A stretch of 44,905 bases of DNA from Candidatus Altimarinota bacterium (GCA_043730605.1 JAYTJZ010000031.1:1-44905), one strand, 5' to 3'; positions 18,883-33,356 are shown, counted from the first letter of the stretch. Notes: generated by a model from the letters alone, not told the origin. Program-made: numbers and translations.

Positions 18883-21800
18883 ATGGTACAAGATCTTCGA
18901 AATAACTGATCTGAAAATCTAGAAACTACGCTTCTAGATATGGAAAATATCACGAGAAACCCTCTGACTCGAGAAAGTGCAGATACATTTATACGCTATC
19001 TTAATAGTTATCCTTCCCTGAACGAGGACTTCAGAACTCAAGAACTTATCGAGACTTTTACGAGACAACTCGAAAGTATCCAAGCTGCGTGGGCACAGGA
19101 AAAAATATCTGCTCTGAGTGAATTTCGTAATACCAGAAGTGCTTTTGCTGGAAATATCGTAAGTGCATGGACCCCCCCTTCAGAAGACCAGGAAGAAGAA
19201 ACGAATCTTGAAACTCACGCAACTCTTTCAAAATCTGAATATACAAAACTCGCTCAAGATGTGATTCAATTTACTCCCGAGAGTGAAATAAAAAATAATA
19301 GAAATATTTTTCTCTTTCAAAAATACTTTGCACAAACAGATCTCGGTTCTGAAATCAGTGTAGATGGAGTGGGTGGACCTCAAACTCTTGCAGCTATAAG
19401 TTACGATTCACGAGCTACTTCTATATTTTTGCGAGAACTTGGGTTCAAAGGACTCGATGGAGGAACACTTAATATCCGAAATACTTTTACTGCTGATATT
19501 ACTGCTGCGATTCAAAGCGCATTTTGAGTAAGGATAACGTCTCAAGTAGAAACTCCAGAAGTTGCAGTAACTCCAAGAGTCGAAGTAGCTCCTGCAGTAC
19601 AACGTACTCTTGCAGAAGAAATTATAGGAGTTCCTCTGACTGCAGAAAAGATACGAGCTTATCAAGTAGAACACAATATTGGAGCCGATGGAATACTTGG
19701 AAATGAAACGTATTTTGAAATGCGAGCTGGAGAACTTGTTGTGGGATTGACTGGAAATATAGAAAACCTTGAAACTCAAGAAGCTTTACTACAAGTATTA
19801 CAGTATTGAAATCCTGCAGGAATAAATTATGCTAAACTGCTTCCAGAAATAGGACATTTTCGAGAACAAGAAAAAAACAATGCTCAATATGCTGCTTTCT
19901 TTCGAAAACTTGATGCGATAATGCAAAATCCTGCATCAAATCCTCATACTCCAGCCTTAGAAGAACAAGCAACTCGTCCAAATAGTGCGGGAGGAAGTCT
20001 TTTATGAGATATTCCTAAATTAATTGAGGGAGAAATAACACCACAAGAATATTTGCAAAGAAATAAAGGTACATGAATCCTTATTGGTATTGCTGCCTTT
20101 ATATTTTTTGGAGATAAAATTCCTGGGATAGATAAAATTCCTGGGATGTGAAGTTGGTTTGGAAGAATCGCTTGGCTTTTTGGTGGGGCTGTGCTATGAG
20201 GAGGAGATTTACTTAAATATGGTCTCGAAAAAGCAGGAGAAGGAATAGGAGTTGGGAGGGAATGGCTTGTAGATCAAGCGAATCAAACTTGAAGTAGTCC
20301 TGAAGAAAGAATACGAGCTAGTAGAAATGCAGAAGGATCTCCACTACAAAGAATATTTCCAGAAGCTGATTTCTTCGATGCGGTACAAGCAAAATTTCGA
20401 GAAGACGAAACTCTTGGGTATATCAGAATATCCGATATCCCCTCTCTTATAGCATCTATCGAATCTGGTACAAATATTCCAGCTTATATCGAAAATCTTC
20501 GTATTAATGGGCAAGCTCTCACTAAAGAACAACTTATAGGATATCTTTCATCTCTCAAAAAAGCTGCAACATGAAAAGAAATAACCTATATTAGTGATTT
20601 ATACAGTATCGATGAAAATTATGGAACTCTAGGAAGTATAGCTCTTGGGACACTTGCAGTAACAGCTTTAATTGCTGGAGCACCAGTAATAGCAACTCTA
20701 TGAGCAGTATGAGCTGCAGGTGCATATATGGGAAATGATTATATCAATACATTAGTAGAATCTCTCACATCAAGTAAAGAAAATATAGAAATTTCAAATA
20801 TTATTGCAACTATATGAGATCCTGAACTTGCTGGACGCATTTCAACCCTCTACCAGAGTGATGCTTCTCTTGAAGAAAAAATACAACAACTTTGAATCTT
20901 TGCAAACGAAAATGCAAGCTATACAGAGTCTATTAAAAAGATTATCGATAATTTAATTGCTCTTGATACAAAATTTATAGAGATGATAGTAGAAAATCGT
21001 TCTATAAATCTTGTATTAGAAGAAACTATAAGACTTTCTGCCACAGAGATTAGTGGAATGAAAGGAGAAATCCAAAATAAGATTTCTTACATTGAAGCAC
21101 ATGTATGAGATGATACCCTCAAACAAGAACTCATACAAAGACTTTCTCTTGTAGCAGACAAAATAGAAGCCCTCCTTGCTACAAGAATCAGTGAAGAAGA
21201 AACTCAAAGAAGAGAAGATATACGTGCAAAAGTCTCTACTTTACAGTCAGATATCACTGCTCGTCGAGCAAATATCGATGCCCTTAATAGTGATAGAGAG
21301 CGTCTACTTTGAGAACGTTCAACTGCAACTGCTGAAAGAATCTGAGAAATAGAAAGGGAACTTTCTGAGATTCCAACAAAAATAGCTGCTTTAGAAGCTG
21401 AAATTTTAACTCTTGAATGAACTCTCTCGACAGCGAAACAAGAAGCAGCTGAAGTGTCTGTACTTGAGTGAAGAGTGTTGACAGAAAATATCTTAGCATA
21501 TCTTTCTGGAAGTCTCGAAAGCGCAATTCAAATACAATGAGCCATTGAAGCTATTACAAGAAATATAGAAAGTATTAAGAATTTTAAAAATCAAATTCAG
21601 ATATTAGAAGAAAGTATAGCTCTCGCTCCAACAAGTAGTGAAAAAAATGAAATATCAAGAAATATAGAAAATATCAATGCTCTCTATGCTCAACTTCAGA
21701 CAAGATTAGATCAAGATATTGCAGCTCGAACAAATATAGCTACTATTTCATGATTCGATTTTGAAAATGTAGAAAGTAAAGCTTCTCTTGAAAGACTCTT

Positions 21801-22350
21801 GAGTCTTACAGAAAATACTCAAATATGAGAAGTTTTTTCACTTACAAACGGTGATAATATAAATGAGGCTTATAAAAATGAACTTATTTCACAAATTTGA
21901 GTGATAGAAAATAGTTTTGTAAATCCTGAAAATAAAAATATTGAAAATTTAAAAAGTATTGTAGCAAAACGAGCACAACTTACCGCAATATATTGAGAAT
22001 TATTCTGAGAATCATACGATGAAGCTCGTTTCCAAGAAATTATAAATTCAAAAAAAACAAGTCTTTTACTTCTTCCTTATAACCAAATATTCCTTCGAGA
22101 AAATATAGGCGTAGAAAATGTAGTCAATAGGTATTTTTCCCAACTTAGTCCAGAAAATAAAAGTGTAATTCAAATAGAATTTTCAACACAAAATACTCTT
22201 TGAAATATCCTTACACTTCTTGAAGCTTTTTCACAAGCTCAAGCGTATAGACTAGCAGATAATACTGAAGTAGTAATCGATGAAACTACCAGAACTGAAT
22301 CCCGAGAGCTTTCTACTGTGTTACAATGAGAAATTAATTTTTTAAGTTAA
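18883..22350 (+). CDS. orphan giant protein A (about 1155 aa): two PG_binding_1-like repeats, two hydrophobic hairpins, long C-terminal coiled coil
   Basis: Frame 1 is open from ATG 18883 (alternative 18940) to TAA 22348-22350, with about 26 in-frame TGAs and no TAA/TAG. SVDGVGGPQTLAAI and IGADGILGNETYFEM resemble peptidoglycan-binding repeats. Hydrophobic ILIGIAAFIFFG / IAWLFGGAVLGGG and LGSIALGTLAVTALIAGAPVIATLGAVGAAGAY. Heptad-rich E/K/L/I region from about 20900. Confidence 0.75.
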
Positions 22351-22354
22351 AAAT

Positions 22355-31785: not shown

Positions 31786-31819
31786 AAAATATGTTACACT
31801 TTGAGTAACATATTTTTTT
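31786..31819 (+). terminator. rho-independent terminator after gene G
   Basis: ATATGTTAC-ACTTTGA-GTAACATAT hairpin followed by a T-run. Confidence 0.6.
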
Positions 31820-31829
31820 ATACTTTTTT

Positions 31830-33356
31830 ATGAGTGCAGAGAATTTAGTACAAATAGATCTTTCGCAAGAAAATAAAACAGCTCATATTGCTGATACGAT
31901 ACTAACTCCTGAAGAAAAAGTACAACTCGAAACGCAACTAGCAGCTGAAAAAGAAGGGATTCTTTCTTTGACACAACAAGAATTAGAAGAACTCAAAAGT
32001 ATACTAAGTATCGAAAGAAGTATAGGACAAAATCCAAGATGACCTTTAGACTCTGCATTTAGACCATGAGAAACTCTTGGAAATTTTATAGAAACTCAAA
32101 AAATAGAAGGGATCTCTACTTCTGATATCATGTCTTGAGTAGAGGGAAATCTTTTCACTCCTGAACTGCTTGATCAGTTTGATACTCTATCTCAAGATAT
32201 GCTTTTTGGAACAGAAGGAATTTTTTCTGGTCTTGATATTTCTCAAAAGGCACAGGAAAGTGCCAGTGTGAGTTTTTCTCTCGCATTACTCGAAAAAATA
32301 CAAACATCACCAACGCAAATACAACAATTGATGGATCCAGCTACCCTACAAAATCCAGAAGCAATAGGAGAAATACTTGCATCTTTTGGATGAGAAAATA
32401 TGACTCAAATAGGAGCTCATTTTCAACAAGCACAGGAGGAAGTACGACCAGCTTACCAAATAGATGGAGCAGGAGAAAAAAACAAAATATTTATGGATAC
32501 ACCGACTGGAGTAGATTTTTTTAGACGTATTCTTTCTGGAGAAATTACTCTTACAAATATTCATGCTGAAATAGACAAACAAGATGCTCCAAGTCCTTTG
32601 GAAACGAGTCTAGGTGATATTTCTATTCTTCAAGATATAGGGACATTTACTCCCGAAGAGCTACAAGCTCTCACTGCTCCTGTAGACCCAAGCTCAACAG
32701 CAAGTGATACTCCAGTGATTCCAGATCCCGAAGGAGTTTTAGCTCCACTAAATACCGAAGAAGCCCAAACTGCAACCGAGCGACTCGCTGAGATGCAGCC
32801 TCTTGGACCTTTTCTTGCTGCGATTCTTGAGTTTCTCAAAGGTTTAGGAGCAGTAGTATCTCCTGAATCTGAAAACTCGGGAGAAGCAACAGAAACTCAA
32901 AGTGTCCCAGCAACAGATGAAGATACTCCCTCTTCCACTCCTGAAAATACTTCATCAAGTTTTTTAAGTACTTTTCAAGCGTTGGAACTCAGTGGGGAAG
33001 ATGCTATTTCACGAGACTCTCTTCTCACAGAAATCCAAGGAAACGAAGTATTACAAAACCAAATTCAAATAACACTTGAATCTATCTCTCCAGATGAAAT
33101 AGCTATTCAAAGTCTCCAAGATCTCTATGGTCCTGAGAAAAAAATCACTGGAGTAAGTTCTGCTTTTGAAGCTCAATGAATTTTTGCAAATACACCAGAA
33201 GGAACGTCAAATGGAGAAAAATTTCTGACTCTCTTACGAGAATATGCTACATATAGAAATACTCCTTGAGTACGAGACGTTACAGAAAATAGAACGACTT
33301 GGCTTGCATACGGTGAGTTTCGAAAAGGACAAGGATGGAATTCTGTTGGAAGATAA
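31830..33356 (+). CDS. orphan protein H (about 508 aa): acidic, Pro/Ser/Thr/Glu-rich, no clear TM
   Basis: Frame 3 joins ORFs 31830-32042, 32199-32393 and 32400-33179 through TGAs. Stop is TAA 33354-33356. No family recognised. Confidence 0.75.

Follow-up and report, generated by a model that had tools for sequence, protein, structure and literature searches.

The 44,905-nucleotide stretch of DNA analysed here (Candidatus Altimarinota bacterium, GCA_043730605.1, JAYTJZ010000031.1:1-44905; hereafter the window) carries an island of eight genes, A, B, C, D, E, Fm, G and H, between ftsX and queA (Table 1). The island genes are real and lineage-specific. Their products probably, though far from certainly, make up a lineage-specific, peptidoglycan-anchored membrane complex, encoded by what appears to be a fast-evolving accessory island at the ftsX|queA junction. 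An earlier reading of the same DNA (the sequence-only reading) had described a unit of seven plus-strand genes. Reading the open reading frames (ORFs) confirmed all seven with their positions, sizes and spacings (4, 9 and 49 nucleotides for A-B, B-C and C-D), and added an eighth gene that had been overlooked, the minus-strand Fm between E and G. The start of E lies at 28005 (814 amino acids) or 28047 (800 amino acids), and both its homologues and a public gene call favour 28047.

With TAA and TAG as the sole stops, long ORFs appear on both strands of the window, and the standard code fragments the same genes. Conserved Gly sites of housekeeping proteins carry window TGA codons (marked x): RQVxVPY in EF-Tu, GPGRxSAAGS in DnaE (G in 3e0d), and GDILxxKQSG in Mfd. 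Island TGA codons stand opposite Gly of orthologues at 147 of 338 positions and opposite Trp at 0 of 338; GGN codons of the island behave like TGA (269 of 601 opposite Gly), and TGG codons of the window stand opposite Trp. Taken together, the housekeeping and island alignments show that UGA is read as Gly (code 25). The closest genomes, retrieved with QueA, are all labelled Candidatus Gracilibacteria, and the window is part of a Gracilibacteria chromosome.

None of the seven plus-strand ORFs has an internal TAA or TAG, and by our own estimate the chance of a 1155-codon ORF free of both is about 1e-27 at the guanine-plus-cytosine (GC) content of 35% seen across the whole window, island and flanks alike. 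One could still propose that the island is non-functional sequence, or an artefact of calling genes through UGA, pointing to the absence of a known domain from seven of the eight ORFs and to the high TGA usage. This explanation is effectively refuted by conservation. The ORFs run for 223 to 1155 codons, motifs are conserved in their orthologues, and the TGA codons face orthologue Gly. In the related islands of loci L044 and L045, described below, synonymous changes also outnumber non-synonymous ones in the glucosaminidase and X genes, with very small counts.

UGA occurs 26, 22, 24, 15, 27, 13 and 6 times in A, B, C, D, E, G and H. The sequence-only reading had called this density unusually high, at 1 in 16 to 45 codons; the densest value stands (1 in 16, in D), and the sparsest is in fact 1 in 85, in H. 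Of the Gly codons, 16-48% are TGA in the island versus 0-27% in the housekeeping genes of the window. In relatives L001 and L044, TGA accounts for 50-65% of all Gly codons genome-wide and housekeeping genes are equally TGA-rich, so the island excess is modest and specific to the window genome, and the density is unremarkable. The highest TGA share in the window (5 of 7 Gly codons) belongs to an IS200-like Y1 transposase gene at 39524-40045 (minus strand), which shares 85% identity with its positional counterpart in L003.

Under the standard code, the island had been predicted to yield only fragments of 60-260 amino acids, and the longest pieces are indeed 205, 161 and 261 amino acids. The accompanying claim, that such a locus would be missed or called non-coding, is true under code 11, but A, E and H of the window are already public at full length (P0001, P0002, P0052), translated with code 4, in which UGA is Trp. 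These code-4 entries carry Trp instead of Gly at 1-6% of residues, including 26 wrong residues in A. The same error occurs in P0003 from JGI, and the NCBI entry P0004 is correct. Trp-for-Gly entries for the proteins of the window and of the checked JGI contig weaken homology searches and structure prediction.

The island recurs in related genomes. A JGI marine metagenome contig (L001) reads A-B-C-D-E-Fm(-)-G-H-queA...mfd-FKBP, collinear with the window, and further collinear A-B-C-D-E-(Fm)-G-H copies in L039/L040, L041/L042 and L049 bring the number of such metagenomic contigs to four. Both the A-D and the E-G-H order are thus conserved in related genomes, and neither in-frame TAA or TAG codons nor a lack of homologues and synteny, which the sequence-only reading had named as grounds for abandoning it, were found. 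Island proteins are 21-66% identical to those of the window, versus 55-85% for flanking proteins. The nearest genome by its flanks, L003 (Mfd 67%, S-layer-like protein 69%), keeps only C-, E- and H-like genes together with unrelated ones; gene turnover is therefore fast. The A..C..E..H order is retained in L003, L048 and L015, B is swapped for an unrelated protein of 1265-1387 amino acids in L015 and L048, and the relative order of A, C, E and H is constant wherever they are present.

Of 36 loci retrieved with QueA, we mapped 19 that were Gracilibacteria-like. Across Gracilibacteria, the backbone EF-Tu-tRNAs-ftsX | island | queA-bPH-tsaB-mfd-FKBP is constant and the content of the gap is not. 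The gap is empty in six genomes, including GN02-872. A single H-like gene fills it in L036 and in HOT-871, a complete oral genome; L012 has two genes there and L008 has three, some genomes have six or more, and L002, L001 and the window have about eight. At the junction itself (18793-18882 and 33357-33413 in the window; loci L003-L037), the inserted genes almost all run in the queA direction. By these maps, the ftsX|queA junction acts as a gene-gain hotspot across Gracilibacteria, and the unit described in the sequence-only reading is one state of a variable island, not a fixed locus.

A second arrangement of the island places E in a different company: ftsX | glucosaminidase - X (1193-1420 amino acids) - E - Y - an ORF of 38 or 39 amino acids | queA, with the queA end seen only in L044/L045. 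The X-E-Y core also occurs beside rpsT-infC, in L043 and L046. E is adjacent to H or Y in L043, L044, L046 and L047. An iterated profile shows the N-terminal domains of H and Y, each about 105 amino acids long, to be homologous, and both proteins have a central (I)PFLGxF...LG helix. Since the pair recurs in several contexts and H and Y share this N-terminus and helix, E plus H/Y is the recurrent core. Profile comparison with hhalign gave 94.6% for H versus H2, with weak matches for H versus Y (29%) and for A versus a 1387-amino-acid protein of L002 (35%); most other pairs between window families and the unmatched proteins of L002, L003, L004, L008, L012, L015 and L043 gave nothing. Between L044 and L045 (99.75% identity), seven substitutions fall within 45 nucleotides of Y (13407-13451). 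Synonymous and non-synonymous changes number 6 and 6 in Y, 6 and 0 in ftsX, and 9 and 0 in the DUF8128 gene, and the cluster in Y may be a local variable patch.

The hypervariable PTD-repeat gene of Gracilibacteria (Sieber et al., PMC6851277) was considered as a description of this island and rejected, as it lies at a different locus. What Jaffe et al. (PMC8406219) mention is limited to generic modules made up of hypothetical proteins.

The island proteins are membrane-associated, as the sequence-only reading had proposed. Six of them, A, B, C, D, E and Fm, contain hydrophobic stretches rich in Gly and Ala, with hairpins among these. A has an N-terminal PG_binding_1 region, Gly/Ala-rich hydrophobic hairpins at about 396-445 and 580-615 (segments 396-417 and 580-615 by hydropathy, the neighbouring one at about 425-445 read from the sequence), a heptad-rich helical stretch at about 640-950, and a C-terminal domain. 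B has an acidic Pro/Thr-rich N-terminus, a single transmembrane (TM) segment at residues 207-230 and, at its C-terminal end, a domain of some 540 amino acids. C has a soluble N-terminal part of about 575 amino acids, a Gly-zipper-like hydrophobic region at about 579-700 (by hydropathy, 579-609 and beyond) and a variable C-terminus. D is hydrophobic over residues 134-214 and carries the conserved motif GYVxGRKLGEKxLGEKY. G, with the conserved core GEKGxFEA...VWTALSVG.FKEM...GYGHDIMSWLP, is the best conserved island protein (66% identity to L039). The shared N-terminal domain of H is conserved and is followed by an acidic Pro/Thr-rich linker, an amphipathic hydrophobic helix (324-345) and a variable C-terminus. 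The large proteins contain 14-16% Asp plus Glu versus 6-9% Lys plus Arg, with 0-2 Cys, and none has an N-terminal signal peptide in the window or in relatives. No paralogy was found among the island proteins.

The sequence-only reading recognised no family apart from peptidoglycan-binding-like repeats in A, and every database we searched agrees. In the Pfam scan of the island proteins, A alone exceeded a cutoff, with PG_binding_1 (PF01471) at residues 251-277, which scored 24.9 bits where 23 are required (E = 2.3e-5); residues 144-176 hold a further, PG_binding_3-like repeat that stayed under the cutoff. Scans of all eight proteins with PHROGs, NCBIfam and PADLOC gave no family (PADLOC none at E <= 0.01, and so no match to its anti-phage defence models). 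Pfam matched neither divergent E-family members nor proteins sharing only the E N-terminus, and sequence and profile searches of the PDB with A, B, C, the E family and the H family returned nothing below E = 0.1. A motif scan for Walker A and HExxH found neither in the island proteins, as had been stated. The word "orphan" was nevertheless too strong: the proteins belong to no named family, but homologues exist in related genomes. A word-indexed homologue search recovered only the window protein itself with A and three proteins with the H profile; it under-reports, because it missed the 26%-identical orthologue of A. A structure model of H from an alignment of three sequences reached a predicted local distance difference test (pLDDT) score of 37 and is uninformative.

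The E family is the hallmark of the island. E comprises N-terminal helices, a first TM segment (TM1), an all-alpha core of about 330 amino acids, a TM hairpin at about 560-604 and an extra C-terminal beta-rich domain; its hydrophobic segments are at 575-604 by hydropathy and at about 145-165 as read from the sequence. Because of the positive-inside rule (KK precedes TM1 and RYFR lies in the hairpin loop), the E N-terminus is predicted to be inside and the core domain outside. Among 1.84 billion representatives, HMMER found just 46 clusters that match the E profile, all unnamed, and a profile search of a genome contig collection with the E alignment gave no match. AlphaFold2, run on the NCBI member P0004 with 28 homologues, modelled an all-alpha core at about 220-500 with pLDDT of about 90, between helical and TM flanks. 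Foldseek with this model found nothing better than E = 0.5 in the PDB or 0.2 in BFVD, with TM-scores of about 0.1. As modelled, the E-family core is a novel all-alpha fold that has no neighbour in the PDB or BFVD. In the window, L039 and L041, the C-terminal beta-rich domain (about 30000-30449 in the window, about 150 amino acids) forms one protein with the rest of E; in L001 it is a separate 122-amino-acid gene (11967-12335), and E homologues of 600-650 amino acids lack it. This distribution indicates a gene fusion or fission event.

What ties these proteins to the cell wall is the repeated appearance of peptidoglycan modules. Besides the domain in A, the H orthologue of L041 has a PG_binding_1 on record at its C-terminus, and the H orthologues of L003 and L004 show a matching motif there. 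An island protein of L002 has LysM above threshold. In L044 and L047, the first island gene, beside ftsX, encodes a TM-anchored glucosaminidase with a coiled-coil-like N-terminal region. The suggestion of wall-linked envelope proteins is thus borne out across orthologous islands, and the subunit that carries the wall-directed module changes from genome to genome, between proteins that are not homologous (A; H; the LysM protein; the glucosaminidase). This varying placement suggests that the whole assembly, rather than one protein, needs contact with the wall. Wall-binding modules appear to migrate between subunits, a pattern by which envelope complexes can be recognised among orphan genes in general.

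One alternative is that the island belongs to FtsX itself, as an FtsEX-linked module for wall remodelling or division in which FtsX would regulate wall hydrolysis by way of the coiled-coil proteins of the island, namely A and the glucosaminidase. The partners known for FtsX reach the outside through a signal peptide or an anchor and place their coiled coil there. In the window, L001, L002, L041, L044 and L047, ftsX is the immediate divergent neighbour of the island; in two of these the adjoining gene is the membrane-anchored glucosaminidase, and A joins PG_binding_1 to a long helical region. We consider this explanation unlikely all the same. No ftsE or other ABC ATPase gene lies around ftsX within the window, and the island has no Walker A motif; the window island has no hydrolase, LytM or catalytic domain, A having helices and PG_binding_1 only; and the topology of the known partners is not evident in the island. 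The E-Y islands beside rpsT-infC have no ftsX on their contigs (L043, L046), and in the six genomes in which ftsX and queA are directly adjacent, FtsX works without the island. The paradigm to be matched is that of FtsEX-EnvC, FtsEX-PcsB and FtsEX-CwlO, as outlined in PMC6355983, PMC10214136 and PMC11627006.

In the reading we prefer, the island proteins would interact as subunits of one envelope complex. The subunits would insert through internal Gly/Ala-rich helices or hairpins and not through N-terminal signal peptides. E would expose a novel all-alpha ectodomain, and A would supply a long rod of helices. In each genome, one subunit or more would carry a peptidoglycan-binding or -cleaving module, which would fix the assembly in the wall or open a place for it. 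E plus H/Y would be the ancestral core, and A, B, C, D, G and Fm would be lineage additions. Its likeliest purpose, though a speculative one, would be that of a specialised surface or host-contact structure of an episymbiont, along the lines of the cell-contact apparatus that the sequence-only reading had conjectured. A bolder version sees an unrecognised multi-subunit, wall-anchored machine of UGA-recoded Candidate Phyla Radiation (CPR) bacteria, built on E plus H/Y and used as a contact or feeding structure, which would diversify by swapping subunits and wall modules at a fixed hotspot; this is possible, but we lean against it.

Several points weigh against a wall-anchored membrane complex. 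That the proteins form a complex at all is something we infer from conserved gene order only. The topology is ambiguous: by the positive-inside rule, the peptidoglycan-binding N-terminus of A would be cytoplasmic and could bind the wall only if A were exported along an unrecognised route. The H helix is amphipathic and not clearly a TM segment, and in G the hydropathy threshold is nowhere exceeded. Finally, six Gracilibacteria lack the island, which is therefore dispensable.

The same features could also be those of exported effectors or toxins that insert into the membranes of a host or competitor, with Fm, and perhaps D or G, as immunity proteins or chaperones. The large proteins are acidic, low in Cys and free of signal peptides, yet they come with wall-binding modules and bilobed hydrophobic hairpins; sequences and genes turn over rapidly at a fixed hotspot; and Fm is a small gene for a protein with four TM segments, in the opposite orientation and with its own signals. 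This seems to us quite improbable, as neither a domain of toxins, of trafficking (LXG, WXG, MIX, Rhs) or of secretion ATPases nor a Walker A motif was found in the island, and its fixed order of non-paralogous genes, one copy per family, is unlike polymorphic toxin arrays. Fm, the candidate immunity gene, is missing from L041, L003 and L048, which keep E, C and H. Likewise, no component of a type IV (T4SS) or type VII (T7SS) secretion system (VirB4, VirD4, EssC-type ATPase) was found in the island by the Walker A scan, Pfam or NCBIfam; matches to these systems or to phage tails, which had been named as results that would overturn the sequence-only reading, did not appear.

Another alternative is a mobile origin, namely a degraded prophage or mobile element whose large proteins would be tape-measure or ejection proteins. 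The layout of A (a wall-binding domain, Gly-rich hydrophobic segments, long helices) resembles that of tape-measure proteins. The Gly-rich part of C matched PHROG 342 at a non-significant E = 0.009, and tape-measure and minor-tail models were among the structural matches in BFVD, also not significant (E > 0.2, TM-score about 0.1). We regard this origin as very improbable. Pfam and PHROGs revealed no capsid, terminase, tail, integrase or recombinase gene, with nothing in PHROGs below E = 0.009, and no plasmid-type or defence match was found in the island either. A tblastn search of C against 50,697 phage records had no match, and IMG/VR held no E-family locus. No repeat flanks the island (the longest common to both boundaries is 9 nucleotides, equal to shuffled sequence), its composition matches the chromosome, and distant relatives carry its genes collinearly at the corresponding place in the chromosome. 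By these measures the island shows no sign of mobility and appears to be vertically inherited.

Fm stands apart from its neighbours. Its product has four hydrophobic helices and the conserved motif FSLNGGASKLxEM. Among Fm orthologues (L001 12416-12832, L039 8639-9061, L049 9995-10507), second codon positions differ least and third positions most, which confirms the reading frame; this pattern was computed for Fm alone. A plus-strand ORF at 30437-30916 (159 codons, Cys/His-rich) is antisense to Fm and is most likely its spurious mirror. TGA supplies none of 10 Gly codons of Fm in the window, L001 and L039 and 1 of 13 in L049, versus 33-65% in neighbouring genes, and GC at third codon positions is 0.41-0.61 (0.52 in the window) versus 0.15-0.23. 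Fm is also the sole island gene with a Shine-Dalgarno-like AAGAGG ahead of its ATG. The compositional anomaly is kept in four genomes and could reflect high expression, selection on composition or foreign origin. A homologue (hhalign 98.2%, motif ...GGASKLLEMDK) lies at 1571-2023 (plus strand) of L050, a 54%-GC, standard-code metagenome contig, where it adjoins a gene for a major facilitator superfamily transporter. The Fm family thus extends beyond Gracilibacteria and may have been transferred horizontally.

The probable transcription units of the island can be outlined from its signals. The sequence-only reading had A to D as an operon-like unit closed by a terminator, and this holds: a hairpin sits at the D stop, and the A-D layout and order are kept in other genomes. 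It had also given E, G and H their own promoter- and terminator-like signals, which is right for E (both), for the G promoter and for the H terminator; the G terminator, an AT-rich hairpin below the G-C pair requirement of our terminator scan, and the H promoter-like site (9/12) are weak. Thus G and H may be co-transcribed. Fm has its own promoter-like site.

Table 1. Genes, boundaries and promoter- and terminator-like signals of the island, with the flanks of the window (positions counted from its first nucleotide).
Feature	Position	Strand	Description
Left flank			housekeeping: DnaE, adenylate cyclase, EF-Tu, tRNA-Leu, tRNA-Ala, tRNA-Asp, FtsX
ftsX	17806..18792	-	left boundary, divergent from A; Pfam FtsX_ECD; 51-72% identical to FtsX at the same junction in relatives
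A	18883..22350	+	1155 amino acids; orthologues in L001, L041, L039, L015
B	22355..24670	+	771 amino acids; orthologues in L001, L039, L041
C	24680..27205	+	841 amino acids; orthologues in L001, L003, L039, L041, L048, L015
D	27255..27974	+	239 amino acids, 18% Gly, small membrane protein
Terminator-like hairpin and T run	27960..27984	+	overlaps D stop; end of A-D unit
Promoter-like site before E	27986..28014	+	TTGATA-17-TATGAT, TG-extended, 10/12
E	28047..30449	+	800 amino acids; hallmark family
GC-rich hairpin	30471..30498		12-bp arms, T runs on both strands; bidirectional terminator for E (+) and Fm (-)
Fm	30518..30940	-	140 amino acids, four TM segments
Promoter-like site before G	31025..31053	+	TTGACT-17-TATAAT, 11/12
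G	31083..31754	+	223 amino acids
AT-rich hairpin and T run between G and H	31784..31818	+	weak, terminator-like; read from sequence
H	31830..33356	+	508 amino acids; always last gene before queA
Terminator-like hairpin after H	33382..33409	+	
queA	33414..34469	+	right boundary
Right flank			QueA, bPH protein, TsaB, Mfd, FKBP, IS200-like Y1 transposase, large S-layer-like protein, PilC

The surroundings of the island yielded a few further observations. A minus-strand gene at 14058-14495, outside the island and 4.4 kb away, encodes a 145-amino-acid membrane protein with a Pfam T4SS_pilin match just under the cutoff (E = 3.6e-5); HOT-871 and GN02-872 also have it. Right downstream of queA, L044 has three T4SS_pilin genes along with the gene for the DUF8128 protein. 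In L001, queA (15176-15890) is split into overlapping ORFs of 121 and 135 amino acids, by a frameshift or an assembly error.

Most envelope proteins of Gracilibacteria and their relatives are unannotated, and the island is a concrete, conserved eight-gene candidate for the study of their envelope biology. Its core (E, H/Y) and its hotspot (ftsX|queA) are defined, and genomes that naturally have or lack it can be compared. It fits no known kind of system, with the caveat that its novelty is that of uncharacterised orphan families, of which CPR genomes have many. Several known systems nonetheless share some of its features.

The FtsEX hydrolase systems (FtsEX-EnvC-amidase, FtsEX-PcsB, FtsEX-CwlO, FtsX-RipC) are alike in the adjoining ftsX, in combining coiled coils with peptidoglycan modules and, for L044 and L047, in a glucosaminidase encoded directly beside ftsX. 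The island differs from them in that it has no ftsE nearby and no hydrolase or LytM domain in the window, is missing from many ftsX-bearing genomes, and has an E-Y core that also occurs away from ftsX. In those systems there is one secreted partner, whereas the island encodes eight mostly polytopic proteins.

Phage tape-measure and ejection proteins also combine wall-binding or lytic modules with Gly-rich hydrophobic segments and long helices, and lack signal peptides. Against this likeness, the island has no phage context and no significant PHROG, Pfam or BFVD match, keeps a conserved position and appears to be inherited vertically. Chlamydial Inc proteins, which are type III secretion substrates with a bilobed hydrophobic hairpin, are a second parallel: in both cases the hairpin is flanked by large soluble coiled-coil domains, and the families evolve fast and are lineage-specific. 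Inc proteins are not known to carry wall-binding modules, and no secretion system is linked to the island.

In ExeA/GspA of type II secretion, a membrane protein with PG_binding_1 ties a multi-protein envelope assembly to the wall, and the wall-binding module is likewise on an accessory subunit. The island differs in having no AAA+ domain, secretin partner or type II secretion genes, and its module moves between A, H and the LysM protein.

Finally, the attachment organelle of Mycoplasma is built from large acidic Pro-rich or coiled-coil proteins and small membrane proteins (HMW1, HMW2, HMW3, P65, P30), encoded with recoded UGA. These are not known to have homologues beyond their own clade. No similarity to the island proteins was detected in sequence or structure, and Mycoplasma has no peptidoglycan, in contrast to an island rich in wall-binding modules. 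What the two share is a lineage-restricted protein set in a host-dependent, UGA-recoded bacterium with a reduced genome.

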